Both the position numbers and the translations under genes were made by a program. This document shows positions 27,658 through 64,000 of a stretch of DNA of 64,000 nt, piece by piece. The stretch is from IMG/VR virus record IMGVR_UViG_2541047860_000002; one strand, written 5' to 3'. Under the pieces are notes generated by a model that was not told the DNA's origin, did not search any database, and saw only the letters and a program-made list of their open reading frames with translations. The DNA comes from a virus. Its lineage: Duplodnaviria > Heunggongvirae > Uroviricota > Caudoviricetes. Every line of letters begins with the position of its first letter. Within the stretch, counting starts at the first letter, position 1.

Positions 27658-27661
27658 AATT

Positions 27662-27748: not shown

Positions 27749-27753
27749 TAAAT

Positions 27754-39736: not shown

Positions 39737-39741
39737 AAAAA

Positions 39742-39760
39742 GCCCCGGCCAGGCCGGGGC
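39742..39760 (-). terminator. rho-independent terminator
   Basis: GCCCCGGCC-A-GGCCGGGGC hairpin with T-run on the minus strand. Confidence 0.55.
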
Positions 39761-39768
39761 ATCACGCT

Positions 39769-40897: not shown

Positions 40898-41248
40898 AGT
40901 TACGGCCTCACTAACAGGTTTAACAACCTGCTACCCGCTGTCAAACAGGTGGCAGGACGTGACAGGGTTGACAGACTGGCGTTAGTGAAACCAGCAGGCC
41001 GAAGCCTCCCCATCACGCCCCACCATAATTCGGGCGTAACGCGGTTTACGGACACAAAAATACCGCAATATCGGAAATCTGCGGTTGTCCGCACTAACAT
41101 TCAGGCTGTCAAACCTGGTCGCAGAATTTGCTACGACGGCATGAATATAAGCCTGAAAACATGGAAGATCAACTAAAAAATTTCAGCAATGGATGACTTC
41201 AGTCGATGATGCAGATCATACATTCCGATTTAGAAACAGCAAATTAAT

Positions 41249-41257
41249 TTTCTAACA
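41249..41257 (-). promoter_or_regulatory. recurrent motif TTTCTAACA
   Basis: Intergenic, upstream (minus strand) of the antirepressor cassette. Confidence 0.35.
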
Positions 41258-41311
41258 CAAATCATCGAGCGAGCATTTTCCGATCATTGGGATGCTTTGT
41301 AGACACACAGG

Positions 41312-42274: not shown

Positions 42275-42447
42275 CAGATAGTTCCGTGAAAAAATCTATC
42301 TACCGTATAAATCTATGGCAGTGGATTTATACACCCAAAAAGCCGCTTCTCAGCGGCTTTTGCTTTTTTGGCAGTCGCTACCGGAGCAGTGACCGCGATC
42401 CTACTCGATCCCATCCACCAGGATCAACAGTGTATATAAATACACTA

Positions 42448-42464
42448 TGTTAGAAATTTAACTT
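42448..42464 (+). promoter_or_regulatory. recurrent motif TGTTAGAAATTTAACTT
   Basis: Preceded by a 16-bp near-palindrome GTGTATATAAATACAC; about 170 bp upstream of the 41312-42274 gene on the minus strand. Confidence 0.4.
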
Positions 42465-42474
42465 AACAAGGCGG

Positions 42475-43473: not shown

Positions 43474-43486
43474 TATTTCCCTCCGG

Positions 43487-45169: not shown

Positions 45170-45233
45170 GAATCACCGCAAATTGTTTCCAGTTTTGCGG
45201 CAGCATAATCAGTATGTGATTTCAGCGGTTGGT

Positions 45234-46631: not shown

Positions 46632-46713
46632 CTATAGAGAAAGCTGTGAGTGTAAAAAGTGTGTGATTTATGTGAGAACAGATAAGTAAAAGGGGCATTT
46701 CAGCCCCTTTTGA

Positions 46714-47082
46714 TTACCCGGCATAACCGTTAGCTTTCACCCAGCTTATGGTCTGCTCTTTAGCCTGCTCCAACGTAAGGAACTCGCCAACATAGTTTGA
46801 GATCCCACGCAGCGCATCAATAAATTCCATTTGTGTGGACTTTGTGAACACACCGCCCAGGAAGTCAGTCACTATCTTAGGGACTTCATCTACAACAGGA
46901 TCAGCCTGTTGTTGCGGTTCCGCTGCCGGTTGCGCGGCAGTCCCCAGGCCCAATTTCAGCATCACATCAACAATCTGCTTACCAATGGTGACGCGTTGCA
47001 ATACTGGCGCAGTTTTCTGCGCCTGCATTAGATCTGATAGCTCTTTACCTAATTTCAGGCGGTCTAAAACAGAGATGGTCAT
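46714..47082 (-). CDS. hypothetical protein
   Basis: 122 aa, translationally coupled to the upstream 660-aa gene. Confidence 0.4.
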   Translation of the reverse strand: MTISVLDRLKLGKELSDLMQAQKTAPVLQRVTIGKQIVDVMLKLGLGTAAQPAAEPQQQADPVVDEVPKIVTDFLGGVFTKSTQMEFIDALRGISNYVGEFLTLEQAKEQTISWVKANGYAG

Positions 47083-49064: not shown

Positions 49065-49653
49065 GTGTCTTAGCTACTTCCTGAGACAAGGCAGCTTTAA
49101 CGTTACCCGTATCTTGCATTACTTTGTCTGACTTGCTCTGGAGTTTAGACAGTTTGTCGTTAGCATTAGCGATATCTTCACGGAGTGCATCACGTGATTC
49201 TTTCGCTTCAGCTAATTTCTGAGCGTTAGATTTAACTCCCTGCCGCTTCTTATTTCCGTCATCAATATTTTTTGCTGCACGAGCAAGTTTTCGAGCTAAT
49301 GACTTCTGGAAAGAAGTTGCTCCGCGATTAAATAAAGCCGCAAGAGATTGCCCCAAAGCCGACATTGTTTTTACTGGCTTGAACGGTACTGTTTTACCAT
49401 TCAGTTTGATCCCAGATATATCACCGGTATCGTTAACCTGAACTTCCATTGTCTGTTCATCAATACCAATAAGAGTAAACGTGCGCGTCATGATCCCATC
49501 TTTCTTCCTGCCATTACTTACAGGGATCACCCTCGCTATCTTGTAACCACCTTTGCTGATTTCTTTGACGAGTTTTGCCAGCCCCTTTTCGTTTAATTCA
49601 GCATAATTAAGAAGAACATAATTATTCTTATTTGACATCCCAGTCTCCTTCAC
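49018..49653 (-). CDS. hypothetical coiled-coil protein
   Basis: 211-aa ORF; probable start at an internal Met (about 49638). Confidence 0.4.
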   Translation of the reverse strand: MKETGMSNKNNYVLLNYAELNEKGLAKLVKEISKGGYKIARVIPVSNGRKKDGIMTRTFTLIGIDEQTMEVQVNDTGDISGIKLNGKTVPFKPVKTMSALGQSLAALFNRGATSFQKSLARKLARAAKNIDDGNKKRQGVKSNAQKLAEAKESRDALREDIANANDKLSKLQSKSDKVMQDTGNVKAALSQEVAKTRALKEEIARLEDEHD

Positions 49654-50074
49654 GCTTTTCGATCGTAAACTGGCGCTCTATGCAGTCATTGATAGGGAAA
49701 ATGCGATAAAGCGGATTCAGTCGGCAGTTACCGTTAGTCAATGTGACTTTCAGATCCCACTTCGTTGGCTCAAGATATTTCGTATCGATGAGCAAATACT
49801 CTTCTCTCTCACCGCGTTTTGAGGCGTCAACTGGTCGCGTTTTCCCTGAAATAACCACAGATGGATTTTTCAGGTCTTGCAACCAATATTCGATTTGAGC
49901 ATTGCTGACCCAGCTTCGCTTAACACGTAGCGAAACAGGAAATGCTATAGCGGATTCTTTCACTACAGCGTCACCAATACTCAAAATCTCAACACTCTTG
50001 CGACGAAAAATGAAACGGTCAATGATGGCAACAAATGCCATGATAAAAATGAAATAATTTCCAAAGTTACCCAT
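49628..50074 (-). CDS. membrane-anchored protein (possible antiholin, LydB-like by position)
   Basis: 148 aa with N-terminal hydrophobic helix, immediately after the holin-like gene. Confidence 0.35.
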   Translation of the reverse strand: MGNFGNYFIFIMAFVAIIDRFIFRRKSVEILSIGDAVVKESAIAFPVSLRVKRSWVSNAQIEYWLQDLKNPSVVISGKTRPVDASKRGEREEYLLIDTKYLEPTKWDLKVTLTNGNCRLNPLYRIFPINDCIERQFTIEKREGDWDVK

Positions 50075-50400
50075 TATTTCTCTCCACCTTTTCCCCCATT
50101 CGCTATTACGCTTAAGAGATTCAAGACGTTACTAGCTCTGGACTTCAAGCCCTGTAAAATTTCACTACCGTTGTTACTGGCAATCAGAACAACGCAGAAA
50201 ATGATACCTTCAGGCCATTCTTGGCTAACCGCCACCCCATACCCCGCAAGCCCGGCTGTTACCGCAGTAAACAATTCACTCGCAAGATTGAGCAGGGACG
50301 CAGAAATGCGCCCGTCTCTAACTCCGAGAAGGAATACGCCGGTTCCACTTAGTAGGGATGTTATGACTACTACAGCCAGATTTTCATAATCTGCAAACAT
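50074..50400 (-). CDS. holin-like membrane protein (LydA-like by size and position)
   Basis: 108 aa with hydrophobic segments and a charged C-terminus. Confidence 0.4.
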   Translation of the reverse strand: MFADYENLAVVVITSLLSGTGVFLLGVRDGRISASLLNLASELFTAVTAGLAGYGVAVSQEWPEGIIFCVVLIASNNGSEILQGLKSRASNVLNLLSVIANGGKGGEK

Positions 50401-50506
50401 ACCCCTCCAGAAATAACATCTAATGCGCCACTAACTTAGTCAGTTTGTTATTTCCTTACAGGACATCTTCTAAAATCTCCCCCCTTAACATACAAGGGGG
50501 GGACAT

Positions 50507-51067
50507 ATGCTTATTGGATACATTCGCGTATCAACTAATGACCAAAACACCGCTTTACAACGAAACGCCCTTGAAAGCGCAGGATGTGAGCTAATTTTTG
50601 AGGATAAGGCGAGCGGCAAAAAGGCTGAACGCCCAGGGTTAAAAAAGGTTCTCCGTATGCTTTCCAGAGGTGACACCCTAGTCGTATGGAAGTTAGATCG
50701 TCTTGGGCGCAGCATGCGTCACTTAGTTGTGCTGGTGGAAGAGCTGCGTGACAGAGGCATTAACTTCCGGAGTCTCACTGACTCCATCGACACCAGTACA
50801 CCAATGGGGCGCTTTTTCTTTCACGTAATGGGGGCGCTGGCAGAAATGGAACGTGAGCTTATCGTTGAACGTACACGCGCTGGACTTGATGCAGCTCGCG
50901 CAGAAGGTCGTATAGGTGGGCGTCGGCCTAAATACCAAGAAGAAACATGGCAGCAAATGCGGCGATTGCTCGAGAAGGGCATCCCCCGTAAGCAGGTTGC
51001 AATCATCTATGATGTGGCTGTTTCCACGCTTTATAAGAAGTTTCCGGCGTCATCATTTCAATCCTAA
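50507..51067 (+). CDS. serine DNA invertase (Cin/Gin/Hin/Pin family), copy 1
   Basis: 186 aa; N-terminal MLIGYIRVSTNDQ catalytic-serine motif and C-terminal HTH; 3' end runs into the left cix-like site. Confidence 0.9.
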   Translation: MLIGYIRVSTNDQNTALQRNALESAGCELIFEDKASGKKAERPGLKKVLRMLSRGDTLVVWKLDRLGRSMRHLVVLVEELRDRGINFRSLTDSIDTSTPMGRFFFHVMGALAEMERELIVERTRAGLDAARAEGRIGGRRPKYQEETWQQMRRLLEKGIPRKQVAIIYDVAVSTLYKKFPASSFQS

Positions 51068-51084
51068 ACCTTGGTTTAAGAGAA
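51059..51084. other. cix/gix-like inversion crossover site (left)
   Basis: CAATCCTAAACC-TT-GGTTTAAGAGAA, 12-2-12 imperfect inverted repeat. Confidence 0.55.
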
Positions 51085-51114
51085 CTCGGTACCAGTGGTG
51101 AAAAGATCCCCCTG

Positions 51115-52650
51115 TTGAGCACGGCTAACACATGGAGTGCGCGCCAGACTTTCAACGGCGGGATCACCGGGGCGCTGACAGGGAACGCCGATACCGCGAC
51201 GAAATTGAAAACAGCCAGAAACATTAATGGCGTCAGGTTCGATGGTTCGGCTGACATTAATATCAATACTCTGGTATCACGCGGTCGAGTAACTGCTCTG
51301 GCGTCGAATGCGCAGGGGACATCCGGGATTCAGCTGTATGAGGCATACAACAATGGCTACCCTTCCCCCTATGGCAATGTGCTTCACCTTAAAGGTGCCA
51401 CCGCTGCTGGCGAAGGTGAGTTATTCATTGGCTGGAGTGGCACGAGCGGTGACCATGCGCCCGTACATATCCGTTCGCGGCGGGATACTGATTCTGCCAA
51501 CTGGTCTGAATGGGCGCAGGTCTATACGTCAAAAGATTCCGTTCCCGGCGTTAATACCAAAGGGAATCAGGACACCTCTGGTAATGCGGCTACAGCGACC
51601 AAATTGCAGACAGCACGTACTATTAACGGTGTCTCGTTTGATGGTTCTAAAAACATTGAGCTAACAGCGGAAGATTTAAATCTTGAGCAAACCGTAGAAT
51701 TAGCCGCTGGATCATTGCAGAAAAACCAGAACGGCGCAGATATTCCAAACAAAGATAAATTTACGCAAACAATAGGTGCTTGCCGCTCTTTTCATGGTGC
51801 TATTAGCACAGGTGCAGGAAACTGGACGACGGCACAATTGATTGAATGGCTGGATTCTCAAGGGGCATTCAATCACCCATACTGGATGTGCAAATGTTCA
51901 TGGTCATACGGCAATAATAAAATTATTACCGATACTGGCTGTGGAACTATTCATCTTGCAGGTTGCGTTATTGAGGTTATGGGTAATAAAGGTGCCATGA
52001 CTATCCGTGTAACCACCCCGAGCACTTCCAGAGGTGGCGGAACTACTAATGCACAATTTACTTATATAAACCATGGCGCAGATTACGCACCAGGCTGGCG
52101 GCGTGACTACAGTACCAAAAATCAGCAGCCTGCATTTGCTTTAGGGCAGACAGGAAGCACTGTTGGAAATGACAAAGCTGTTGGATGGAACTCAATTAGT
52201 GGCGTTTATAATGCGACTATTGGTGGAGCATCAACATTGATTCTTCACTTTAATATGAATGCGGGGAGTTGCCCTGCTGTACAGTTCCGTGTGAATTACA
52301 GGAACGGTGGTATTTTTTATCGTTCAGCGCGTGATGGTTACGGATTCGAAGCTGACTGGTCAGAATTTTACACCACAACACGCAAGCCATCAGCAGGAGA
52401 TGTTGGTGCATATACCAAAGCGGAGGCGGACTCCCGTTATGTACGTGATATCCGACTTGGTGGCGCATCATCATACAAACCAGCAAATAATGGCACAACA
52501 TGGACACATCAGGCTCCATCTGGTTGCGCATATACCGGAATAATTGTTCAGGATACAGGCTCAAACTCTGCCGATAATATTGGTGGTGTTTATTACAGAC
52601 CAATTCAAAAAAATATTAATGGCACATGGTATAACGTATCGAGTATTTGA
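51115..52650 (+). CDS. tail fibre variable C-terminal segment (Sv-like), no constant part attached
   Basis: 511 aa from a TTG; frame is open back through the cix site to a stop at about 51034 with no ATG. Confidence 0.65.
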   Translation: MSTANTWSARQTFNGGITGALTGNADTATKLKTARNINGVRFDGSADININTLVSRGRVTALASNAQGTSGIQLYEAYNNGYPSPYGNVLHLKGATAAGEGELFIGWSGTSGDHAPVHIRSRRDTDSANWSEWAQVYTSKDSVPGVNTKGNQDTSGNAATATKLQTARTINGVSFDGSKNIELTAEDLNLEQTVELAAGSLQKNQNGADIPNKDKFTQTIGACRSFHGAISTGAGNWTTAQLIEWLDSQGAFNHPYWMCKCSWSYGNNKIITDTGCGTIHLAGCVIEVMGNKGAMTIRVTTPSTSRGGGTTNAQFTYINHGADYAPGWRRDYSTKNQQPAFALGQTGSTVGNDKAVGWNSISGVYNATIGGASTLILHFNMNAGSCPAVQFRVNYRNGGIFYRSARDGYGFEADWSEFYTTTRKPSAGDVGAYTKAEADSRYVRDIRLGGASSYKPANNGTTWTHQAPSGCAYTGIIVQDTGSNSADNIGGVYYRPIQKNINGTWYNVSSI

Positions 52651-53186
52651 TTATGATGCATTTAAAAAACATAAAGCCAGGCAATCCAAAAACCGAAGAG
52701 CAATATCTTTTAACTAAAAACTCAGGCGTCGTCTGGTTATGGACCGAAGATGGTAAGAACTGGTATGAGGAACAAAAGAACTTTCAGGAAGACACCATAA
52801 AGATTGCATATGATGAAAATAATGTTATATGCGACGTGCAAAAGGATGTGACTGCAATTTGCCCGGAGGGAAAAAGTGTCGTTGAGGTTCCTGATATTAC
52901 AGCAAATCGCCGGGCTGATATTTCGGGTAAATGGATGTTCAAAGATGGCGTAGTGATAAAGCGAACTTATACCGAGGAAGAGCAGAGGCAACAAGCGGAA
53001 AATGAAAAGCAAAGCCTGCTACAGCTCGTCAGGGATAAAACACAGCTATGGGACTCACAGTTACGGCTGGGTATCATTTCCGACGAGAATAAACAAAAAT
53101 TAACCGAGTGGATGCTCTATGCGCAGAAGGTCGAATCCACAGACACCTCCAGCCTGCCAGTAACATTTCCCGAACAACCAGAATGA
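52647..53186 (+). CDS. tail fibre assembly protein
   Basis: 179 aa; paralogue of the convergent ORF 53215-53742. Confidence 0.75.
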   Translation: MIMMHLKNIKPGNPKTEEQYLLTKNSGVVWLWTEDGKNWYEEQKNFQEDTIKIAYDENNVICDVQKDVTAICPEGKSVVEVPDITANRRADISGKWMFKDGVVIKRTYTEEEQRQQAENEKQSLLQLVRDKTQLWDSQLRLGIISDENKQKLTEWMLYAQKVESTDTSSLPVTFPEQPE

Positions 53187-53214
53187 GAGAAGGCCCGATA
53201 TCGGGCCTTAATTT

Positions 53215-53742
53215 TTATTCAGGCTTTTGTGGCCATTCAGGATTTGCCGTATCCACACGGCTGACCAGAACACTGTAGCGTTCCCATGACTCCAGTCGTG
53301 CGCGTTCCTCATCCGTCGCCATATTCAGCCTGACAGCGCGTTCCAGTGGCTGAATAACGCTTTCTGCTTCGGAAAGTAACGCGGCCTTTTGTGATTCGGC
53401 CTGTTGTTGCTGTTCATCTGCCGTATAAATCCGTTTAACCACAGCTCCGTCCTTAAACATCCACTTCCCTGAATCATCGGCACGACGATTGGCTGTTATG
53501 TCGGGAACCTCAACGACGCTAAAACCTTCAGGGTTAAGCGTGGAGGCATCTTTGGTGATGGCGACAATAATATTATTTTCATCGTAAACAATCTTTATGG
53601 TGTCTGGCTGAAAGTTTTTCACTTCCTCATACCAGTTTTTTTCGTCCTCAGAGTAAAGCCAGATGACTCCGTGCTTCTTTGTTAACTCATACTGATCCAG
53701 TGTTTTAGCATTACCCGCTTTTATGTTCTTTAAGTGCATCAT
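53215..53742 (-). CDS. tail fibre assembly protein (alternative)
   Basis: 175 aa, mirror-image partner of 52647-53186. Confidence 0.75.
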
Positions 53743-53743
53743 A

Positions 53744-54754
53744 TTAAACGCTCGCTACATTATACCAGGTGCCATTTATATACTTTTGAACGGGTCTGTA
53801 ATAAACGCCCGCTATATTATCGGCAGAGTTGGACCCTGTATCCTGAACATTAATACCAGACAATACATGACCTGACGGGCACTGGAAATTCCATGTTTGC
53901 CAGTTGTTTACTCCATAATATTGCTGTGAACCAAGTCGAACATCTTTCACATAACGGGAATCAAAGTTACCGTAATCCGAGGGATTAACACGCCCTGTAA
54001 TATTTATGGTTTTATTACTTTGAATGCTGCCGGAGACAAAGCGCATAACATGGACGTTATTAGCATAAACGTCCAGATTACCGTCGCCATTTTGTTTAAA
54101 GCCCGTGTCATTATCACCCAAAACAATCGAGTTACCGCCAAGAGCACTGGATGTTCCGATACCCAATGCACCATTCAATTGACCGCCAGATAATGACAAC
54201 GCCCCAACCTCAGCAGCAGTCGGTTTAATGTGCGAACTGTAAATTACATATACAGTTCCATCTGTCAGGCCTGTTGGTTTATTCGCTGTATAAGTTGGTG
54301 ATGTATGAATTTGTACAGTTGCATCCTTTGTATAATCCCACTGGATATTAACACCTGTGGCGTAATTACCTATTTTTACATAAATGTCATAGGTATCACC
54401 GGATGTATTCACCCATGCAAAATTAGTAAATCCAACCGAGGTCCGTCGCCATAATGCACCAGTAAGACCTTTTGGATTTCCATTTCCCGCACGAAGAACA
54501 AGTTCAGATATACCAGCCTGCATAGGGGAGTTAACATTATATCCAGCACCACCAATCAGACTTATGTAAACCACGGAACTGGCTTGTGGCATTGTTACAG
54601 TTGCCAGTTTGAACCATCCAGCACCACCACTAAAAGACATGGTTGTTGAATTTGTTGTGCCGATATTACGCAGGAATAGTTTTTTATCGGGAATATCTGC
54701 GCCGTTCTGGTTTTTCTGTAATGCGCCAGAAGCCTGATTTACCGTTTCCTGCAA
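53744..54754 (-). CDS. tail fibre variable C-terminal segment (alternative), no constant part attached
   Basis: 336 aa from a TTG inside the right cix site; a stop lies 3 codons upstream; shares the [12 protein letters not shown] block with the other variable segment. Confidence 0.65.
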
Positions 54755-54771
54755 ACCGAGGTTTTAGATAA
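54746..54771. other. cix/gix-like inversion crossover site (right)
   Basis: TTCCTGCAAACC-GA-GGTTTTAGATAA, close to the Mu gix sequence as recalled. Confidence 0.7.
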
Positions 54772-54825
54772 TGGCCGTTTCTGACCTGCATGGCATGATT
54801 TACGCTTTTGGACGGGAGATTCAGC

Positions 54826-55413
54826 GTGCTGATTGGCTATGTAAGGGTATCAACAAATGACCAGAATACAGACCTGCAACGAAACGCTCTTGTTTGTGCA
54901 GGATGTGAACAAATATTTGAAGATAAATTAAGCGGGACAAAGACAGACCGACCGGGATTAAAACGCGCTTTAAAGCGCCTTCAAAAAGGTGACACGCTGG
55001 TTGTCTGGAAACTGGATCGCCTCGGGCGAAGCATGAAACATCTGATTTCTCTCGTCGGGGAACTACGGGAGCGAGGGATTAATTTTCGCAGTCTGACCGA
55101 CAGCATAGATACATCTTCTCCAATGGGACGTTTTTTCTTCCACGTGATGGGTGCCCTGGCTGAAATGGAACGTGAATTAATTGTTGAACGTACACTGGCC
55201 GGACTGGCAGCAGCGCGCGCACGGGGGCGCACAGGCGGACGTCGCCCGAAGCTGACAAAAGAACAGCATGAGCAAATAGCAAGGCTGATTAAAAACGGTC
55301 ACGACAGAAAACAACTGGCAATAATTTACGGCATTGGTACATCGACGATTTATCGTTACCACCCCGCAGGAGAATCAAGCGGAACAATAGAGAAGAGTCA
55401 GAAAACAAAATAA
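54826..55413 (+). CDS. serine DNA invertase (Pin/Gin-like), copy 2
   Basis: Probable GTG start giving (M)LIGYVRVSTNDQ; catalytic-serine and HTH regions conserved; the track ORF starts at an upstream TTG (54808). Confidence 0.9.
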   Translation: MLIGYVRVSTNDQNTDLQRNALVCAGCEQIFEDKLSGTKTDRPGLKRALKRLQKGDTLVVWKLDRLGRSMKHLISLVGELRERGINFRSLTDSIDTSSPMGRFFFHVMGALAEMERELIVERTLAGLAAARARGRTGGRRPKLTKEQHEQIARLIKNGHDRKQLAIIYGIGTSTIYRYHPAGESSGTIEKSQKTK

Positions 55414-55441
55414 CCGCTAATCTGACCATTAGCGGTTTTTG
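55412..55441. terminator. bidirectional rho-independent terminator
   Basis: AACCGCTAAT-CTGACC-ATTAGCGGTT hairpin plus T-run between convergent genes. Confidence 0.65.
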
Positions 55442-55448
55442 TGTTAAA

Positions 55449-55943
55449 TCAGAACAGCCCTTTAACTGAACTGGCCGCGCTGTTAAGAGATGATGTCACC
55501 TTATCTTTGAAGCCGGACAGCATATCGCTGAACGATGAGGATTGCAGGCGCTCCCGCAAATCCTCATCACAGCGTTCAAGGGTCAGTGAAAATTCTATCT
55601 TTTTCGCCTTACCGTAGCGATCAAACTCGGAACGGGTCGTATTCGTTCCGGTCAGGACATACATGCCGTAAATCTGCCCGACGCCATCAATCAAAGGCCA
55701 GGGTCGTCCTGTATACGCCTGCGTGGTCAGCAGCGACAGCGACACTTCGCCACCTGTAATTTCAGGATAAAGCACACCAGAAAGAACGATGCGATCATCA
55801 CCTGCACCGATATACTGCCAGCTTGCTGAACGGTTAACGCGTTCATTTTTCACATGCCGCCAGCTTTTGTTTTGCTGTAACTGCTGATGCGGCAGCGTGC
55901 GCAGCTCAAAAACAAACATGCCGTAGATCATCATCATGGCCAT
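55449..55943 (-). CDS. P2 gpU-like tail protein
   Basis: 164 aa with the WQY.GAGDD ... LSG.LYPE.TGG block I associate with P2 gpU. Confidence 0.75.
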   Translation of the reverse strand: MAMMMIYGMFVFELRTLPHQQLQQNKSWRHVKNERVNRSASWQYIGAGDDRIVLSGVLYPEITGGEVSLSLLTTQAYTGRPWPLIDGVGQIYGMYVLTGTNTTRSEFDRYGKAKKIEFSLTLERCDEDLRERLQSSSFSDMLSGFKDKVTSSLNSAASSVKGLF

Positions 55944-55949
55944 GACTCC

Positions 55950-58757
55950 TCAATCTTTATCGTAAAAACTGCCACGCCCGGCACGGGCGCGCCGTTCCAT
56001 TTCTGCCCTGACCATTTCACCGACCAGTTTCGCCAGTTCGCGGGGATTCTGTGTAACAACGTTATGCAGATGAACATGAATTTCACCGCCAAATCCGGAG
56101 GCAACAGGCTCCCGGTTACGGGAAGTTGCAGGAACTGATGCCACTGGCGATCGTATGGCCTCCGCCACCGGGCGGGAGCTGGCCGCAACAACAGGGACCA
56201 GCGCCGGAGGCAGCGGAGCCGGAACCACGGGTGTGATATTAATTGCGGGGGCAGGCTTACTGACCTGCGCAATCTTCCGCTCCTGCCACTCCCCACGAAC
56301 AGCAAGTGCGCGGGGCAGGTTCTTAAAGACAATATCGCCGGGGCCAATGCGTTTTTTCGTCTCATCAACCAGCTTACCTGTGTTATCAGCAATTTTGCTG
56401 AGTCTGCGTAGCGTCCCGGTATTGCTGTCTGTGAGCGGTTTGTTGTCTTTGGGTTTATCACCTCCGGTGCCATTGCCATTTTCCACAGGCTTCGGCGGAT
56501 TGATTTTCGCCAGGTCCCCCTGAAGCAAGGCAACCTTGTCCTGAAGAATGGCCGCACGCTGTGCGTCTTCGATTTTCTTGCGCGCCCTTTCCGCTTCATC
56601 CGGAAGGACGCCAAGTTTTTCAAGTATCCACGCCAGCGTATCCAGTAGCATTTTTGCAGGTGTCAGAACAAGTTGTAACGCACCGCCAAGAACGTTACCG
56701 AATATCTCGCCAGCACTGGTACATTTATCCAGAGTTTCCTTGCTGGATTCCATCGGTGACAGCAGCGATTTAAACCAGTTAAACACCTGGCTGATCCCGC
56801 TTCCGATTGCGTCAAAAACAGGACCAAACCGTTCAAAGGTTTCGCGCAACGGGGTCAGCCTTTCCATAATCCCGCTGAACACCCCGGCAAAAAATGCCCT
56901 GATGGGATCCCAGTATTTCCAGATAAGAACGGCAGCTCCGGCAAGCGCAGCCACGATAAGACCAACCGGACTGAACAACGCCCCGATGGCGCCTCCCAGT
57001 AAAGAAACGGAACCCGTCACCATTCCCCACAGCGCAGGCAACGCCCTGACGACATTCATTGACCGGGTAAGAATGTCAAAACCAAGACGCAGGGTGGCCA
57101 GCTTCCCGTAAAGCACCCCAATAACCAGCGACAACGAGCCAATCGTTGCAGTCATTGCCAACAACGCACCGCCTGCTATCAGTAGCTGGCGCGTCAGTAC
57201 CGGATGGGCCTGCGCCAGCGAGGTGATTTTTTCAAGCACCCGCGTGAGCCACTGCGTGACAGAACGCAGCGGACCGTCAACCAGATCACTGATGCGAATA
57301 CGAAGACCTTCCCATGCGCTGTCGAGATTTTTCAGGTCCCCATCAAGATTATCGGCCATTACTTTTGCAACGCGATCGGACTCTCCCCTTGCCCCCTGCA
57401 ATTCTCTGGTCAGTTTTTGCAGCTCTCCTGAACCAGCCGCCGCAACAAGCGTCTGCAAACCAACGAACGCCTCTTCTCCGGCGATGTCCTTGAAGAAGGA
57501 AACCTGGTCCACCTGTCCGTATTTTTGTGTCGCCTTATAGAGATCAAGCAGCACATCCTCCATCGGGCGCATTTTGCCTCTGGCGTCAGCAACTGACACC
57601 CCCAGCTCTTTCAGTGCATCAGCCGCAGCTTTTGGCGGTGATGCAAGGCGGGACAGACTTGCGCGCATGGCCGTACCAGCATCGCTTCCACGAAGACCAT
57701 TATTGGCAAGCATCCCGGCCATAGCTGCCGCTTCTTCAAGACTGATACCAAGTTTTGCGGCAACCGGACCGGTATACTTCATGGTTTCGCCCAGCGCGCG
57801 TAAATCAGTATTGGTCCGGGTGAATGCCGCTGTCAGCGTATCGCCAACCCGGTCCATTTGATCGGCTGTCAGGTTGAACTGTGTGAGGATATTGGAGCCT
57901 ATATCAGCCGTCTCGCCGAGTTCGACGCCACCTGCCAGCGCCATATTAAGAACACCGGGCAATGCGGCCTGAATGGCCTGCGGAGTAAAACCAGCCATTG
58001 CCAGAAAGCTCTGCCCACTGGCGGCATCACTCGCAGTAAACTGTGTTTCAGAGCCAAGTTTTAACGCCTGCTCACGCAGCGCCTTAAACTGCGGGCTGTT
58101 TTTGTCGATTCGCGTCAGCGCCTGAACGCGGGACATCTCTTTGCCGAACCCGATCGCGGGCTGCAAAAAACGCCCGGCAGCATAGCCGCCCGCCGCTGCC
58201 GCACCAATTGCCAGCGCACCACCTGTTTTCAGTTTTCCCGCGGTTTCCTGCGCGCGCGAATACCGCTCACGCGCCCGCGTTACACGCGCAAGCGCCTGCC
58301 GTTCGCGTTCAAGCTGGTTGTTGTACTGTTCGGTGCGTCTGATGGCCTGCTGGATGGTGTTATCGCTGCCTGTCAGGGAAATGCCGTGGCGTTTCAGTTC
58401 TCCGCCAATCTCCCGCATTTTCTGAATTTCCCGTGTGCGCGATTCATTCAGGCGTTCAAGCCGGGTGCTTAACTGCTGCATCAGCTTTTGTTGTTTTTCG
58501 CTGAGCACTGTACCCGTGCGTTGTAACTGATTAAGGGCGTTAAGCTGGCGTCGTGCTTTCACGATGCCCGCATCCGCTTTACTGACAGCGTCACGGGCGC
58601 GCTCAAATGAACGCGCCTGACGCTCGAGATTTTTGATCGCCCCCTGCGTTCGCTGGATGGAGTCACCAAACTGCCCCATCAGGCGGCGGGCGTTTTCGGC
58701 AGGCCGGGTCAGCCTGTCAACGGCGCTGAAAGCGACCCGGATATCAAGAGTCTTCAT
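55950..58757 (-). CDS. tail tape measure protein
   Basis: 935 aa, coiled-coil N-terminus, Gly/Ala-rich hydrophobic core; directly after the E/E-prime chaperone genes. Confidence 0.85.
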   Translation of the reverse strand: MKTLDIRVAFSAVDRLTRPAENARRLMGQFGDSIQRTQGAIKNLERQARSFERARDAVSKADAGIVKARRQLNALNQLQRTGTVLSEKQQKLMQQLSTRLERLNESRTREIQKMREIGGELKRHGISLTGSDNTIQQAIRRTEQYNNQLERERQALARVTRARERYSRAQETAGKLKTGGALAIGAAAAGGYAAGRFLQPAIGFGKEMSRVQALTRIDKNSPQFKALREQALKLGSETQFTASDAASGQSFLAMAGFTPQAIQAALPGVLNMALAGGVELGETADIGSNILTQFNLTADQMDRVGDTLTAAFTRTNTDLRALGETMKYTGPVAAKLGISLEEAAAMAGMLANNGLRGSDAGTAMRASLSRLASPPKAAADALKELGVSVADARGKMRPMEDVLLDLYKATQKYGQVDQVSFFKDIAGEEAFVGLQTLVAAAGSGELQKLTRELQGARGESDRVAKVMADNLDGDLKNLDSAWEGLRIRISDLVDGPLRSVTQWLTRVLEKITSLAQAHPVLTRQLLIAGGALLAMTATIGSLSLVIGVLYGKLATLRLGFDILTRSMNVVRALPALWGMVTGSVSLLGGAIGALFSPVGLIVAALAGAAVLIWKYWDPIRAFFAGVFSGIMERLTPLRETFERFGPVFDAIGSGISQVFNWFKSLLSPMESSKETLDKCTSAGEIFGNVLGGALQLVLTPAKMLLDTLAWILEKLGVLPDEAERARKKIEDAQRAAILQDKVALLQGDLAKINPPKPVENGNGTGGDKPKDNKPLTDSNTGTLRRLSKIADNTGKLVDETKKRIGPGDIVFKNLPRALAVRGEWQERKIAQVSKPAPAINITPVVPAPLPPALVPVVAASSRPVAEAIRSPVASVPATSRNREPVASGFGGEIHVHLHNVVTQNPRELAKLVGEMVRAEMERRARAGRGSFYDKD

Positions 58758-59282
58758 TATCTACATTCCCGCTGCGAAGTGCCGCCCGCTCACGCCAGCT
58801 AACCACTTCGCCGGGCGTCATCATGAAGATTTCGGCGGGCGACCAGTTAAAAATGGCGGCGATATCTGCCACCAGATCTTCGATGTGCTCAAAGCACACC
58901 AGGGTGATTACGCTGCCGTCTCCTGCACGCTCTTCGCGCCAGAGTCTGGCTCGCTCATAAAATTTACAGCCACAGCGCACAACTGAATAAAATCGCGTGA
59001 CGACATTTTTTTAATCATCACTTCATCCAGTCGTGGCGAGGTCACGCGAGGCAACAGCGTGAACATGGTATCCGCTTTCAGATTCAGCACATCAGACAGC
59101 GACAGACCACGCAGGGATCCAGCCTGTTCAATAGCCCCGGTGATCTCCACATACGTGATTTTTTCGCCACCACGCTCAATTGGTCGGGTCAGTTTTACGC
59201 CACGTTCGACAGCCATATCCTCACCTGCCGTCACATCATCCGCCACGGTGTTATTCCGGGTTTCAGTATCGATGTCTTTCAT
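58744..59282 (-). CDS. tail assembly chaperone E plus E-prime fusion via -1 programmed frameshift
   Basis: gpE ORF is 58908-59282 (124 aa); the -1 frame is open from the A7 tract at 59006-59012 to 58744 and overlaps the tape measure start. Confidence 0.65.
59006..59012 (-). other. slippery heptanucleotide (AAAAAAA on mRNA) for the E/E-prime -1 frameshift
   Basis: Covers Lys91-Lys92 of gpE; shifting back one nt continues into the E-prime frame. Confidence 0.6.
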
Positions 59283-59337
59283 CAGTTGTCTCCTTTTCAG
59301 TCAGAGGCGACGCACTGCGCCGCCTGCATATTACTTA

Positions 59338-59850
59338 TCAGCCAAGCCCGAGCGCGGAACGGATGCGATCGGGCACAATGTCCTTGCCGTCCTTCCGGTA
59401 AATGAAGTTCAGCAGGTCAATCTCCCACAACGGGCGATCGTTAACACTCAGCTTGTAGTAGGTGTTTTTAATGGCGTAAGTGTGTGATGTGGCTTCGCCC
59501 TGTTTGGCTTCCCCCATATCAATTTCCGTCACACGTCCGCGCATTTCGACTTCATACAGGTCGCTTTCTGCATCGGTGTAGTATTCACCCGCAAAACGCA
59601 GCAGCGTGCCGTCAATCGTGCCGCCATACTTAAGGAACAGCTCACGAACTGCGCCCCCCATGACAAAGCTCGCATCAAGCGCGGAGTCGTCCAGACCGAG
59701 ATCAATACTTACCGCACCCATCATGCCACCACCCCGGTAGCTGTCGGTTTTGCGCGTCAGCTTAGGCAGAGTGACGGACGTCACCTTACCCACTTCGTTT
59801 TCACCATCCACAAACAGCGTAAAAAAGCGAAGATGTTTTGGTACAGCCAT
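59338..59850 (-). CDS. tail tube protein (P2 FII-like)
   Basis: 170 aa directly downstream of and coupled to the sheath gene. Confidence 0.8.
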   Translation of the reverse strand: MAVPKHLRFFTLFVDGENEVGKVTSVTLPKLTRKTDSYRGGGMMGAVSIDLGLDDSALDASFVMGGAVRELFLKYGGTIDGTLLRFAGEYYTDAESDLYEVEMRGRVTEIDMGEAKQGEATSHTYAIKNTYYKLSVNDRPLWEIDLLNFIYRKDGKDIVPDRIRSALGLG

Positions 59851-61034
59851 CAGGCACCTCCCAGCACCGCAAATGCGGGACCAAAGAATTCATCAGTAAA
59901 CGACTGGTAAAGCTCCATGTCTTCCAGCGGGGGAACAGGCGTATATTTGTAGCGAATACGCACGCGCCCCTGACGTAAATTCGTGGTGCCGTTATCCACC
60001 ACGTCATACCAGCACGACGCCCCAATCAGTTTCCCGGCAGTAACCAGTGAATCCAGTTTTGCCCTGATGGCACTGATAACATCTTTCACGTTCGCAGGCG
60101 TCAGTGGACTGTCGATGGTTTCAAACTGCGCTTCCGCAATTGAATCAGCCAGCACCTGTGCGGTTCGGGTATACACCTCAAAGATGTAGGCGTTCGTTTC
60201 CGGTGTGCGGTTGCCCCAGAAGCGGAACCCATTGCGACGAATAATGGTCGTGATTTCTTTGTTGTTGAGGCTGTTGGCATCGCTGTCTTCGGCCTGCAAC
60301 GACCAGAACACATGCCTCGACATCCCCAGCACATTTTTAACCGGAACGTTGGACAGTGATTTGTGCCAGCCCTGCTCATGGTCAATGTACGCACGAAGGC
60401 CGCACGCATAGGCAGGCGCGGGGAACGTTTCGTTTTTGCCACTTTTCGGGTTGTAGGCAATGAAGTCCGGCCATAAGAGCATCACCTCACGTTCGTTGAA
60501 TTTCTGGCGGTAGGTAATCGCCTCAGCCATCGTGTTACAGCCGTAACATGAGGCATACACAAACGCGCGCAGTTTACCTGCAATCACGCACAGGGATTTT
60601 GTTACAGCCTCCGTGTCCAGCTCCGGCGCGGCCAGAATACGCGGACGGTATCCGATGCTTTCATCCTGCTCTGCAACAAGCAGCGCATACATCCCCGTAT
60701 AGCTGCCGTCAGATTCAGAGCCACCGATAACCAGTTGATCCTGCGTCTTTCCGTCTTCTTCTTTGTGTTCAGCCACGCGAACGACGATCACCTTTGTGCT
60801 CACCTGGTCTGCGATGGCCTTAAGCGCACGATAAAGCGTCCCCGTTGTCCCGCATTTTCCCAGCACGTCATTGACGCGGGTCAGCAGTGTGGGCTTGTTC
60901 AGCGGGAACAGCTCTGCGTCCGCATCATCCGCCGTTGCCACGATACCGATAACACTGGAGTCAACATCATTAATCGCTGTTACCAGGTCGGTACTTTCCG
61001 TGACACGGGCACCATGAAAACGAGTTTCACTCAT
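59850..61034 (-). CDS. tail sheath protein (P2 FI-like)
   Basis: 394 aa, contractile-sheath size; first gene of the FI-FII-E-T-U block. Confidence 0.85.
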   Translation of the reverse strand: MSETRFHGARVTESTDLVTAINDVDSSVIGIVATADDADAELFPLNKPTLLTRVNDVLGKCGTTGTLYRALKAIADQVSTKVIVVRVAEHKEEDGKTQDQLVIGGSESDGSYTGMYALLVAEQDESIGYRPRILAAPELDTEAVTKSLCVIAGKLRAFVYASCYGCNTMAEAITYRQKFNEREVMLLWPDFIAYNPKSGKNETFPAPAYACGLRAYIDHEQGWHKSLSNVPVKNVLGMSRHVFWSLQAEDSDANSLNNKEITTIIRRNGFRFWGNRTPETNAYIFEVYTRTAQVLADSIAEAQFETIDSPLTPANVKDVISAIRAKLDSLVTAGKLIGASCWYDVVDNGTTNLRQGRVRIRYKYTPVPPLEDMELYQSFTDEFFGPAFAVLGGA

Positions 61035-61191
61035 AGCTTCAGCCCCTTGTATCCGTTAAATGATTCGGCAACAATCATCACCCACCACGCGCGTAATCTC
61101 ACCCCTGCGCCGTTCTCCCGCCACGGCGACAACAAAAAGCAGTAACCCCCTCCGCACGCACATGCGACCATGCCGCACAGGGAGGGAACAG

Positions 61192-62301
61192 ATGACCGAC
61201 ACCACCATGCAATTGCTCAGTCAGGGCACAGACCCCGTGAAAATGCCGGATTTTGATATTCTCGCGGAGGGTAAAACGTTGTCAGGCGTGGCAGAGCGCC
61301 TGATGAGCCTGTCACTGACCGACAACCGGGGATTTGAAGCGGACCAGCTCACCATCACGCTGGATGATGCGGATGGTCAGTTGCAGCTACCGCCACGGGG
61401 CGCGCGCCTGACGGTTCTCATTGGCTGGAAAGGAGAACCGCTGACAGAAAAAGGCACTTACATTGTTGATGAAATCGCTCACGAAGGACCGCCGGACAGG
61501 CTGACTGTTTCAGCCAGAAGCGCAGATTTTCGGGATGAATTTAACGTTAAACGTGAGGTGTCCTGGCATGATGTGACCGTTGAGCGTGTGGTATCCGCCA
61601 TCGCTCATCGGTATGGTCTGAAACCGCAAATCAGCGAAATGCTGATGGATATCGAAATCGACCACGCCGACCAGACCGAAGAAAGCGACATGTCCTTCCT
61701 TACGCGCATGGCGGAAATGCTGGGCGCAATCACCACGGTAAAAAGCGGTAATCTGTTATTCATCATGCCCGGCGGTGGCGTGAACGCGCAGGGCCAGCCG
61801 TTGCCATCGTTTGCCATCACACGCAGCAGCGGCGATCGCCATCAGTTCCGCATTGCTGACCGCGAGGCGTATACGGGTGTACGCGCCTACTGGCTTGATC
61901 TTAATTACGGGAAAAAGAAAAAAGTCAGCGTGAAACGCCGCAAACCGCCAAAACCCAAAAAGGAGAAAAGCAGCAGCCGCGAAGGTGACTATATGGAAGG
62001 TGCGGAAGGCAACGTATTTGTGTTACGCAAGACTTATCAGAACGAGCAGGCAGCAAGACGCGCAGCGGCGGCAAAATGGCAGCAGCTACAACGCGGAGCC
62101 GCATCATTTTCCATCACGCTGGCACGTGGACGCGCAGAACTCTACCCCGAAATGCATGGCACGGTAACAGGATTTAAAAGCGAGATTGATAATCAGGACT
62201 GGATTATTGCAAAAGCCGAGCACACCATTGATAACAGCGGCTTTACCACGCAGCTTGAGCTTGAGGCAAAAATCCCGGAATGGATAGCGGAAACAAAGTG
62301 A
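61192..62301 (+). CDS. P2 gpD-like tail protein
   Basis: Start at the internal ATG of track ORF 61060-62301; contains LTDNRGFEADQL characteristic of gpD; followed by ogr. Confidence 0.75.
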   Translation: MTDTTMQLLSQGTDPVKMPDFDILAEGKTLSGVAERLMSLSLTDNRGFEADQLTITLDDADGQLQLPPRGARLTVLIGWKGEPLTEKGTYIVDEIAHEGPPDRLTVSARSADFRDEFNVKREVSWHDVTVERVVSAIAHRYGLKPQISEMLMDIEIDHADQTEESDMSFLTRMAEMLGAITTVKSGNLLFIMPGGGVNAQGQPLPSFAITRSSGDRHQFRIADREAYTGVRAYWLDLNYGKKKKVSVKRRKPPKPKKEKSSSREGDYMEGAEGNVFVLRKTYQNEQAARRAAAAKWQQLQRGAASFSITLARGRAELYPEMHGTVTGFKSEIDNQDWIIAKAEHTIDNSGFTTQLELEAKIPEWIAETK

Positions 62302-62343
62302 GCAACTTAGAATAGCGGCAGCACCACGTTAAGGGAGGTCGCT

Positions 62344-62604
62344 ATGTTCCGTTGTCCGCTTTGTGGCGCATCTGCCCGTATCCGCACCAGTCGTCCGGAA
62401 AATGATTCAAACACCGTGCGGCAAAAGTATTACCAGTGTAACAACCTGGAATGCGGCGTATGCTTCTCAACACTGGAAGCTTTCCATAAATTCACATCGA
62501 AACACGCCTCCGGCGTTCACTCATCAGAAGGTATCCCGTGGCATGAGCTGCCAGCTTCACACAGGGGAAACAATCAGATGAGTTTGCCTTTACCTCAGAA
62601 TTAA
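62344..62604 (+). CDS. ogr: Ogr/Delta-family zinc-finger late transcription activator
   Basis: N-terminal MFRCPLCG ... YYQCNNLECG four-Cys pattern as in P2 Ogr. Confidence 0.75.
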   Translation: MFRCPLCGASARIRTSRPENDSNTVRQKYYQCNNLECGVCFSTLEAFHKFTSKHASGVHSSEGIPWHELPASHRGNNQMSLPLPQN

Positions 62605-62793
62605 CAGGCAGAATTGCCGGAGTAACAAAAAAGCGATAGATTACGTGCGGGTGCCTTTCGGCTGATGGTCGGAGGGAATACCCGAAGGCCAGATGTGGAA
62701 AGGCCCCGGAAAACATTTCTGTTTAACCGAGGCCCTAACCCGTCAACCTAGCAAGTGATAGGTTAGCGCCTCTCCAACAAAGGAGCAAGCGCT

Positions 62794-62934
62794 ATGTCGC
62801 AAAAATCGCTTACGGCCATCACGTTCTGCGTGACGGTAATCCTCATCATCTGGATGCTGCACGGTTCGCTGTGTGAAATACGGATGAGCTTCTGGGGAGC
62901 GGAGTTTGCGGCGTTCTTACAGTGTAAGCAGTAA
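62794..62934 (+). CDS. Hok/Gef-family type I toxin-like peptide
   Basis: 46-aa ORF below the track cutoff with one membrane helix and the LCEIR hallmark; upstream leader carries a small overlapping ORF. Confidence 0.6.
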   Translation: MSQKSLTAITFCVTVILIIWMLHGSLCEIRMSFWGAEFAAFLQCKQ

Positions 62935-63123
62935 GGAAACCGCGACGGGGAGGCAACTCCCCGTCAATCGGTTGCTAGGGTAAGGCCGATAAGGCACCCT
63001 ATCTCATAGGCATGAATAACAACCCCGCAGCGTAAAAACTGCGGGGTTTCTTTTTGGAACTCTCACTAGCTAGTGAGCCGTTAACTGCACATAATGCTCG
63101 CACAACAAATCAGTTAAAAGAGA

Positions 63124-63519
63124 TTACTCAGCATTCTCCTGCTTCCATTGCCGGATCATTTCATCGGTAACATCACTTTCATAACATACCACGTCATACC
63201 CGCCAGTACGGCTATATGCACTGCGTCCACCACATCTACTACCATTCCTTGCATGATTATACGGACACGCACAATTGCCTGGATAAGATTCAATGGATTC
63301 TTTAATTATTTCTTTCTTGATCTGAGCATCTGACTTTCCTGTTGCTGCATACCCACTAAAAGATACCAAACAAAGGCAGATTGCCATTAATAAACCACAT
63401 CGCATACCGATACACTCTATTACTAACCAATCATAGCCCACATCATAAAATCGAGATGAGGAGTACAACACCTTTAACAAGAAGGTGCCATCACGATAAT
63501 ATGCCGTGCAATTCATCAA
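63124..63519 (-). CDS. small secreted Cys-rich protein
   Basis: Likely start at an internal Met giving a signal peptide and a ~70-aa mature part with 6 Cys. Confidence 0.4.
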   Translation of the reverse strand: MMNCTAYYRDGTFLLKVLYSSSRFYDVGYDWLVIECIGMRCGLLMAICLCLVSFSGYAATGKSDAQIKKEIIKESIESYPGNCACPYNHARNGSRCGGRSAYSRTGGYDVVCYESDVTDEMIRQWKQENAE

Positions 63520-63945
63520 AAAAAAGATCTATATCAAAGAGATAGAGTTATTATCAGTGCTGCAGACATCAGCATTCGAGGCAGCAGAAAGACAGTAAAT
63601 CTAACGAATTTGTCTTTTTCTCAGGATGTTGTCAGATTAAAAAAGATAGAGTAGCGCAGACACCTTTTGGTGGATGGTAGGAGGAAAAATGAAGTTGAGT
63701 GGGAAGATCCCAGAAAAAACTTTGGTTTAACCAAGGCCCTAGTTCAATATGCGAAATGCAGATGAGTTGCAAGAGAGTTTTGCTTCACCCTTAGAGTTTA
63801 AACAGACGTGTACTATTATTATTTCTGCATATCGCCACACCATCGCCACTTTACCGCCATTTAACAAAATACAAATACAAAAAAACCACCCGAAGGTGGT
63901 TTCACGACACTGCTTATTGCTTTGATTTTATTCTTATCTTTCCCA

Positions 63946-64000
63946 TGGTACCCGGAGCGGGACTTGAACCCGCACAGCGCGAACGCCGAGGGATTTTAAA
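63946..64000 (-). tRNA. tRNA-Leu (anticodon TAA), 3' portion only
   Basis: CCA end, acceptor, T-arm and anticodon region readable on the minus strand; truncated by the window end. Confidence 0.7.

Follow-up and report, generated by a model that had tools for sequence, protein, structure and literature searches.

A hokW-type hok/sok locus and a probable decayed ogr-hok relic beside the leuZ attachment site of a P88-like prophage

The archetypal hok/sok system is parB of plasmid R1, which combines a small membrane toxin carrying an LCE(I/V)R motif with a long mRNA leader, closure of the mRNA by tac/fbi pairing, a cis-antisense RNA directed against the leader, and a sequestered Shine-Dalgarno (SD) sequence (PMC9841398). 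The tac/fbi closure between the 5′ and 3′ ends is a defining trait of hok mRNAs (PMC9841398). A prophage relative, HokW-SokW of the Stx2 prophage Sp5 in E. coli O157:H7 Sakai, has been established by experiment as a type I toxin-antitoxin system. Both the toxicity of Hok and its neutralization by Sok were demonstrated for hokW-sokW of Sp5, and the length of HokW was given as 51 aa (PMC8621323).

The tRNA-integrating P2-family phages P88, Chuche and P88_4B11 share the gene order D-ogr-hok-cargo-att, in which the cargo differs: com/mom in Chuche, and a Zn-ribbon gene with a TagO-like gene in P88_4B11 and CREC-591. The chromosomes of E. coli contain a number of hok loci, and some of these have been inactivated. 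Pedersen and Gerdes are said to have described in 1999 that hokA, hokC and hokE of E. coli K-12 are inactivated with IS elements, and that hokD is truncated. The hokD gene of K-12 has also been remarked on elsewhere (PMC6379469).

The window analysed here is the whole 64,000-nt stretch of IMG/VR record IMGVR_UViG_2541047860_000002, the right end of which is E. coli DNA. It holds two sequences related to these loci, which are called copy 1 and copy 2 below. It is very likely that copy 1 is a hokW-type toxin-antitoxin moron in a prophage integrated in the tRNA gene leuZ, and that copy 2 is the decayed fossil of an 'ogr-hok' right end. Copy 1 is already annotated and is a known kind of prophage toxin-antitoxin locus, and copy 2 is a case of ordinary gene decay, not a new system. 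The mechanistic weight of the region is therefore small, given that copy 1 belongs to the known hokW type and copy 2 is a previously unannotated pseudogene.

The hok/sok locus after ogr

The features of copy 1 and its surroundings are as follows.

59850-61034, minus strand: tail sheath gene, upstream of the hok locus
61060-62301: gpD, between the tail sheath gene and ogr
62344-62604, plus strand: ogr, late-gene activator (Pfam Ogr_Delta, 52.4 bits; ogr/Delta-like in the RM11911 annotation)
62614-62642, plus strand: putative hok1 promoter (−35 TTGCCG at 62614-62619, 17-nt spacer, −10 TAGATT at 62637-62642)
62649-63050, plus strand: full-length hok1 mRNA of 402 nt, placed from the Rfam leader, the fold and the terminator
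62693-62758, plus strand: leader ORF of 21 aa, its ATG following GAAGG, within the presumed Sok target and without overlap with hok
62695-62754, minus strand: predicted Sok1 antisense RNA, with a 5′ tail, a long hairpin (62736-62701) and then UUUCC; both ends are approximate predictions
62760-62788, minus strand: putative Sok1 promoter (−10 TAACCT, reading AGGTTA on the plus strand at 62760-62765; 17-nt spacer; −35 TTGCTC at 62783-62788)
62794-62934, plus strand: hok1 toxin ORF, 46 aa, containing GSLCEIR, with SD AAGGAG at 62780-62785
63021-63048, plus strand: intrinsic terminator of hok1
63124-63405, minus strand: orf93, the cargo gene between both hok copies (RefSeq hypothetical protein WP_071529678.1)

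Copy 1 (62614-63050) is an intact-looking hokW-type hok/sok locus, carried as cargo (a moron) after ogr, which is the final conserved P2-family gene ahead of the cargo region. A preliminary description, made from the sequence alone, had recognized a Hok-like toxin locus with a 46-aa LCEIR peptide, and this identification was sound. The hok1 peptide scores 30.1 bits against Pfam HOK_GEF (PF01848), where the cut-off is 22 bits, matches phrog_251 'MokW-like host killing' with E = 2.5e-23, and is annotated in RefSeq genomes as a Hok/Gef family protein. Its matches to NCBIfam HokA (35.8 bits, cut-off 89) and Hok (23.6 bits, cut-off 73) lie under the cut-offs. The DNA of copy 1 is 96–97% identical to the same locus in Chuche and P88, and positions 62628-62999 are 84% identical to the hok loci of Stx2 phages, which are taken to be of the hokW type.

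Like copy 1, hokW-sokW of Sp5 is a prophage-borne locus of the hok/sok type, although its phage is lambdoid, whereas the phage that carries copy 1 is P2-like and has the locus after ogr. The Stx phage Lyz12581Vzw has the same leader, fold-back end and putative Sok promoter block as copy 1. Its hok ORF is 46 aa long as in copy 1, rather than the 51 aa of HokW, and 35 of the 46 residues are shared with Hok1. Between prophage lineages, the hok coding sequence is 98.6–100% identical (0–1.4% divergence), compared to 91–96% for the hok leader and 79–86% for the hok 3′ UTR, while the flanks differ by 5–20%. The conservation of the coding sequence above that of the leader and 3′ UTR indicates purifying selection on the peptide.

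The leader (62649-62804) aligns to the full length (1-157) of the Rfam model RF01794 'sok' with 50.4 bits and E = 1.7e-9. The gathering score of 59 bits is not reached, and copy 1 thus falls under the threshold here as it does for NCBIfam. The 402-nt transcript has a minimum free energy (MFE) of −183.5 kcal/mol (z = −7.9), and none of 100 shuffles was equally stable. In the MFE structure, a 5′ tac-like segment (62649-62663) is predicted to pair with an fbi-like segment (62984-62999). Both arms of this helix are conserved in four loci, and the hok SD lies inside a local hairpin in the predicted fold. On the minus strand, 62754-62688 is predicted to fold into a hairpin of −30.3 kcal/mol (z = −4.6). 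Together with the putative promoter block that precedes it, this hairpin has the layout to be expected of a Sok gene.

Both promoters were placed by eye, from position and conservation, and should be regarded as putative; a sigma-70 consensus scan (9 of 12 positions) flagged neither of them. The candidate hok1 promoter lies 6 nt 5′ of the start of the Rfam model and is invariant in four related loci. The Sok1 promoter block GGTTAGCGCCTC is likewise invariant in four loci, and its hexamers are a weak match to the consensus. Its position is one that we take to correspond to that of the sok promoter in R1.

The preliminary description had also mentioned a small overlapping ORF in the leader, which is not a mok: the two leader ORFs, 62665-62751 and 62693-62758, stop 43 and 36 nt ahead of the hok ATG. 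The R1 locus has a mok frame overlapping hok, and translation of hok in such systems depends on mok. In copy 1, no ORF starting with ATG, GTG or TTG overlaps the hok start, and the frame that does so is open from 62739 to 62873 with none of these codons. The lack of mok is the sole departure of copy 1 from the archetype, and it is common to the Stx-phage, Chuche and CREC-591 loci. The start of the leader ORF at 62693-62758 is kept in these same three loci, while its frame and end differ; speculatively, it may act as a functional stand-in for mok.

By analogy with the hok family, the hok1 mRNA (62649 to about 63050) would be translationally silent, held so by pairing of its 5′ end with the 3′ fold-back and by the hairpin over the hok SD. 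A cis-antisense Sok RNA of about 60 nt (approximately 62754 to 62695) would act on the leader, and decay of Sok would then lead to the synthesis of Hok, a 46-aa membrane toxin.

A second, incomplete copy

The preliminary description reported that about 75 bp of the leader recurs about 1 kb downstream at roughly 75% identity. Local alignment of 62600-63060 against 63560-63940 pairs 62627-62738 with 63639-63742 at a score of 55, compared to 18.5 ± 2.2 (maximum 34, n = 500) for shuffled controls and 18 for the reverse strand. Counting ungapped columns, the two leaders are 73.8% identical, and 62572-62738 agrees with 63598-63742 at 75.2%. The repeat is therefore real, and it is longer than 75 bp. 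It starts before the transcript and includes the −10 box: the repeated segment, 62572-62738, comprises the end of ogr (33 nt), the hok promoter and roughly 90 nt from the 5′ end of the hok mRNA.

A profile of copy 2, built after alignment of 5 and then of 24 distinct alleles from genomes and IMG/VR, was used to search both strands of the whole window. With nhmmer, two matches were found. The first aligns positions 64-205 of the 337-bp module described below with 62572-62737 (E = 7e-16), and the second aligns positions 204-273 with 62862-62935, which is hok codons 24-46 with the stop codon (E = 6e-5). The next match in the window, 13107-13175 with E = 1.1, is noise. The two matches adjoin in copy 2 and are 123 nt apart in copy 1. 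The statement that the repeat has no hok ORF after it is hence correct in that no intact ORF is present, but the last codons of hok are there. The features are as follows.

63536-63872, plus strand: att-proximal module of 337 bp containing copy 2, with the same left border in loci with different cargo
63598-63627, plus strand: pseudo-ogr, a remnant of the ogr 3′ end (nhmmer; matched by P2-type loci and not by the Stx-phage locus)
63628-63658, plus strand: hok promoter remnant, with the −10 TAGAGT kept at 63647-63652 (alignment)
63659-63742, plus strand: hok leader remnant with 73.8% identity to 62649-62738, covering the tac/ucb part together with the segment antisense to the Sok 3′ hairpin
63743-63806, plus strand: frameshifted remnant of hok codons 24-46 and stop, fused to the leader (nhmmer)

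Copy 2 is colinear with, and on the same strand as, the series ogr 3′ end, hok promoter, leader and hok 3′ codons, and the two colinear nhmmer matches support common descent with a hok locus. Given that the leader is joined directly to hok codons 24-46 and follows an ogr 3′ end, copy 2 can be described as an ogr'-hok' pseudolocus. Both matches recur on the hok loci of P88, P88_4B11, Chuche and CREC-591, and the coding block of the module matches other hok1 loci with E values down to 2.4e-7. Where ogr is lacking, as in the Stx-phage hok locus, the first match begins only at module position 99, as expected if positions 64-98 come from ogr.

The coding block is better preserved in some other alleles than in that of the window. 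The O157-type and CREC-591-type alleles read GGT TCA CTA TGC GAA ATA CGG (G-S-L-C-E-I-R), and none of 1000 shuffles aligned as well to hok1. Alleles L009 and L007 are pairwise significant over this block. The window allele reads TCA ATA TGC GAA ATG CAG, and its coding block, at 67.7% identity, is not significant taken alone (107 of 1000 shuffles).

Copy 2 has suffered several losses. About 123 bp, the equivalent of 62739-62861, are gone. On the Sok side, this segment of copy 1 contains the putative −10 and −35 as well as the 5′ end with its target; on the hok side, it contains the SD, the ATG and codons 1-23, which encode the transmembrane half. Copy 2 has no intact Hok ORF: the SD, the ATG and codons 1-23 are missing, and frameshifts affect what is left. 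The promoter has a gap of 12 nt that takes out the −35 position, and the best −35-like hexamer, TTGTCA at 63629, is only 12 nt from the −10. The predicted folds are lost as well, with z values of −0.4 for the leader (copy 1, −2.4) and −0.6 for the Sok hairpin (copy 1, −4.6). No match was obtained for copy 2 (251 nt) in Rfam with E up to 10, and neither profile nor alignment found hok 3′ UTR homology after the coding remnant. These losses suggest that neither toxin nor antitoxin can be made from copy 2.

The reading frames of copy 2 were also considered. Indels of 1 and 2 nt in an A/T run shift the frame between copy-2 alleles, which implies that copy 2 encodes no conserved protein. The ORFs at 63667-63765, 63699-63794 and 63749-63925 and the one starting at 63689 were discarded as coding, on account of frame-shifting indels and the lack of a Pfam match. 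The sequence AGGAGGAAAAATG at 63679, a strong SD followed by ATG, hardly varies from allele to allele; the ORF that starts from it has 13, 34 or 36 aa depending on the lineage, and one O157 allele has ATA in place of ATG.

Between divergent lineages, the remnant is 84–88% identical in its leader part and 82–84% in its coding part, whereas in the same prophages the live hok coding sequence is 99–100% and orf93 96–97% identical. Conservation along the module is flat, with 68–84% invariant columns and no island in the fossil. As far as the aligned alleles can tell, copy 2 diverges like unconstrained DNA. An identical deletion junction is seen in about 25 distinct alleles, whose sources are E. coli genomes together with 31 contigs from IMG/VR and 21 from metagenomes. 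Since every copy found shares this junction, the deletion is older than the divergence of the alleles. No intact ancestor of copy 2 was found in IMG/VR, the metagenomes or the 651 E. coli genomes that carry the module.

The leuZ prophage and its att-proximal module

From 54753 to 64000, the window covers the right arm of a prophage that belongs to the P2 family, is P88-like (Xuanwuvirus-like) and sits in leuZ. A complete P2-family prophage in RM11911 is colinear with this region at 94.6% identity, and lies between yecA and the tRNA operon leuZ-cysT-glyW. A putative join of P1-like with P2-like sequence is located further upstream in the window, at about 53–54.7 kb. The phages Chuche and P88 match from 62300 to about 63057 at 96–97% and are divergent beyond. 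The features at the right end are as follows.

63831-63860, plus strand: direct repeats, ATCGCCAC twice and ACCGCCAT, candidate integrase arm-type sites
63873-64000, minus strand: attR identity segment, consisting of the phage-supplied leuZ downstream region and the leuZ 3′ part (K-12 homology starts at 63873)
63882-63903, minus strand: leuZ terminator, within the phage-supplied downstream region
From 63946 and cut by the window end, minus strand: 3′ part of leuZ, tRNA-Leu(UAA)

K-12-type chromosomes show homology from 63873 onwards only, that is, over the leuZ terminator and leuZ, and in most genomes the match begins at 63875 with nothing before it. The absence of the module from the empty yecA-leuZ site of K-12 counts in favor of the leuZ prophage location. 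In RM11911, the segment 63877-64000 (leuZ downstream region and leuZ 3′ half) is duplicated with 100% identity at attL beside yecA, which is the place of the displaced leuZ 3′ half. This second copy indicates that the phage integrates in leuZ and supplies a replacement for the 3′ half of the tRNA. Given that two att copies flank the element, all of the sequence between them, including 63058-63872, should belong to it. A 'distant' blastn search of 50,697 deposited phage genomes gave no match to 63058-63880, and the view that the module is packaged draws on the logic of the att sites and on prophage predictions. The motifs ATCGCCAC and ACCGCCAT are also found beside int in the RM11911 attL, and the repeats at 63831-63860 are probably integrase arm sites.

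Of 5,426 complete E. coli genomes, 651 (about 12%) carry the module; they match as single blocks of about 248 nt and fall into identity classes of approximately 100, 93, 86 and 84%. Divergence of the module between lineages is 12–16%. In IMG/VR, a search with two patterns gave 33 loci, of which 31 contain the module and two (L023 and L149) are unrelated; a further 21 metagenome contigs contain it. The arm motif ATCGCCACAYCAYCGCCAC was also searched for in 185,579 species-representative genomes. All of the 107 loci obtained were chance occurrences and none matched the module profile, the pattern being too short for 596 Gb.

On its right, the module invariably borders the leuZ attachment segment; what lies on its left varies. 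In the window and most of its relatives the left neighbor is orf93, which encodes a small, Cys-rich, secreted-looking product and belongs to phrog_27544 (E = 1.5e-59), a family with no function assigned there. In CREC-591 the place is taken by genes for a Zn-ribbon and a TagO-like protein, together with part of an attP arm of the Chuche/P88 type; even so, the CREC-591 prophage has the same leuZ-type integrase. In ECCTRSRTH03 it is a TIR gene with IS elements. In CREC-629 and in one further locus (L029), IS insertions interrupt the module, and what seemed to be a different gene upstream of copy 2 in L029 is an IS3-family insertion. The constant right side and variable left side indicate that the module travels with the leuZ integration module, and that the slot on its left is a recombination hot spot. 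Among the hok1 loci compared, the module was found in leuZ-type elements only, and the ogr'-hok' fossil thus sets these elements apart from P88, Chuche and P88_4B11. A literature search found no description of an ogr'-hok' relic. For annotation, the 337-bp module beside leuZ can now be labelled as such.

Origin and retention of copy 2

The preliminary description offered two interpretations of the repeat, a decayed second locus or the remnant of an antisense RNA. The first is supported by the colinear order, the inactivating deletions and frameshifts, the loss of the folds and the unconstrained divergence. The second is not supported: the missing equivalent of 62739-62861 is exactly the Sok promoter and the 5′ recognition end of Sok. 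Copy 2 would then be what remains of an 'ogr-hok' right end that was either older or duplicated. The final 23 codons of hok, about 85 nt of its leader, the −10 box and the 3′ end of ogr are still there, and the fossil would persist as a passenger in the module, which separates the variable cargo slot from the leuZ attachment segment.

The simplest history starts from an ancestral right end of the form ogr-hok-attP(leuZ). A second right end, ogr-hok-cargo, would have been joined in front of it, after which the redundant distal copy would decay. Two P2-like genomes or tandem prophages could have recombined to join the ends, or cargo could have been inserted after an intragenomic duplication; the data fit both routes alike. 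The fossil marks a place where P2-family phages have recombined in the past, namely the cargo slot between ogr and attP. The inactivated K-12 hok loci are comparable to copy 2, in that hok pseudogenes form easily and their remnants persist. They differ in how they were broken, by IS insertion rather than by an internal 123-bp deletion with small indels. Copy 2 is in addition a paralogue that lies 1 kb from a live copy in the same prophage and opens with a piece of ogr.

The persistence of the module through at least 15% divergence, in a phage genome of limited size, could hint at some use, and the near invariance of AGGAGGAAAAATG at 63679 likewise speaks against plain decay. While lineages diverged by about 15%, the fossil stayed in place, about 140–350 bp away from the tRNA gene, in a genome limited by packaging, and it might on this ground have been co-opted. 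One form of co-option is as architectural DNA of the attachment site, binding IHF, Cox or the integrase at arm sites. This would account for the fixed distance from the leuZ segment, though we consider both this role and this account of the distance improbable. The fossil always adjoins the att identity segment whatever the cargo, it has been retained as just described, and the candidate arm-type repeats that recur in attL are just 3′ of it. These repeats are, however, outside the hok remnant, and the tRNA gene is over 200 bp away from the start of the fossil, farther than att arm sites would be expected to reach. Linkage by itself explains the co-inheritance. The flat conservation of the module shows no fossil island, and the pattern, so far as aligned sequences can be read in this way, gives no argument for co-option. 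Taken more broadly, to cover either attP-arm architecture of the leuZ type or a short transcript or micropeptide from the AGGAGG-N5-ATG at 63679-63691, the proposal that the fossil is not inert is distinctly improbable.

A regulatory role is still less probable, and we give it very little credence. Copy 2 could be a working orphan regulator that tunes hok1, either as a gene for a Sok-like antisense RNA or as a decoy that titrates Sok1. It shares its prophage with hok1, and the leader segment antisense to the Sok 3′ hairpin is still present in it. The deleted block, however, is exactly the Sok promoter, the 5′ recognition end and the matching target. The counterpart of the Sok hairpin folds like shuffled sequence, a candidate −35 on the minus strand varies between alleles, and copy 2 diverges as quickly as the unconstrained flanks. 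The 25–30% divergence from copy 1 would moreover block extended pairing.

It is extremely unlikely that copy 2 was left over from a host chromosomal hok locus broken by integration of the phage. The several chromosomal hok loci of E. coli, some of them inactivated, and the position of copy 2 next to a host tRNA operon would suit such an origin. Nothing of the kind is present, though, in the empty yecA-leuZ spacer (195 bp in K-12 MC1061), and for most genomes the match starts no earlier than 63875. Relative to the duplicated leuZ 3′ half, copy 2 is located on the phage side, and it opens with a remnant of the phage gene ogr. Finally, the identity of just 75% or so, with several gaps, might suggest chance or low complexity, a reading with practically negligible probability in view of the score of 55 against a shuffle maximum of 34, the E value of 7e-16 on the whole window with a second colinear match, and the matching of both blocks to every P88-type hok locus tested.

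With copy 2 read as a decayed ogr-hok right end, the two copies amount to a natural experiment on the strength of selection, in which the coding sequence of live hok has diverged by 0–1.4% and its dead paralogue by 16–18% in the same prophages.

The leader reading frame and the cargo gene of the hok region

The leader of the live hok locus and the interval between the two hok copies each contain a small reading frame:

62693-62758, leader reading frame of 21 aa, with GAAGG before its ATG
63124-63405, minus strand, orf93, matching phrog_27544 (function not assigned)

The leader reading frame lies wholly inside the predicted Sok target, and its stop codon is 36 nt upstream of the hok ATG. Across four related loci the start is invariant, while the frame and the end are variable. 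It is possible that this frame acts as a substitute for mok, in which case translating ribosomes would unfold the hairpin that contains the SD sequence.

The orf93 product has a signal-peptide-like N-terminus, and its mature portion, about 70 aa long, is rich in Cys (PGNCACPYN…RCGGRSAY). No family was found for it in Pfam or NCBIfam. It is 96-100% conserved among leuZ-type prophages, and is likely to be a moron expressed from the lysogen.

The fossil module in other prophages

An IS30 insertion or deletion has removed the 3' end of gpD, ogr and the live hok from the corresponding P2-like prophage of E. coli O157:H7 (L002, 2485-3895). This prophage retains orf93 and the module carrying the ogr'-hok' fossil, and thus the dead copy outlives the live copy there.

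The left border of the module was examined by comparing E. coli CREC-591 (L007, 2255-2470) with phage Chuche (L004, 4800-5010). Ahead of the module, CREC-591 has an attP arm of the Chuche/P88 type, with GTGGACA repeats, which runs up to …TCATCAACAA, after which the sequence changes over to the AGAGATAGAG… of the module. The CREC-591 prophage has kept the leuZ-type integrase. A foreign fragment consisting of cargo plus att has recombined in exactly at the left border of the module.

The attachment segment and candidate arm sites

The attachment region was delimited using the prophage of RM11911 (L005):

63873-64000 in the window and 4063-4186 in RM11911, attL/attR identity segment
63831-63860 in the window, ogr side of the att segment, direct repeats ATCGCCAC (two copies) and ACCGCCAT
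about 4250-4290 in RM11911, int side, AACGCCAT and ATCGCCAC

The identity between attL and attR extends over at least 124 bp. It comprises the 73 bp downstream of leuZ, including the terminator, together with the 3' part of the tRNA up to the anticodon loop, and therefore the phage replaces both the 3' half of the tRNA and its terminator. The repeats on the two sides are candidate arm-type binding sites for the leuZ-specific integrase, WP_001300279.1.

P1-like and P2-like parts of the window

Positions 39001-54665 (39.0-54.7 kb) match P1-like phage-plasmids at 95-97% and encode DarA, portal, lytic replication and Rha functions, while a chromosomal P2-like prophage is colinear with 54753-64000. 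The switch point lies within the invertible tail-fibre/invertase region, which is common to both phage types, and may represent either a real P1 × P2 recombinant or an assembly join.

Several RNA genes and elements, tRNA genes among them, occur at the following positions, listed jointly:

3598-3808, 40945-41150 and 25555-27830, genes for two C4 antisense RNAs (scoring 76 and 68.8 bits), one c4-a1b1 target element, isrK, and five clustered tRNA genes (Met, Ser, Thr, Tyr, Arg)

Together these suggest that the window contains more than one P1/P7-like immunity region.
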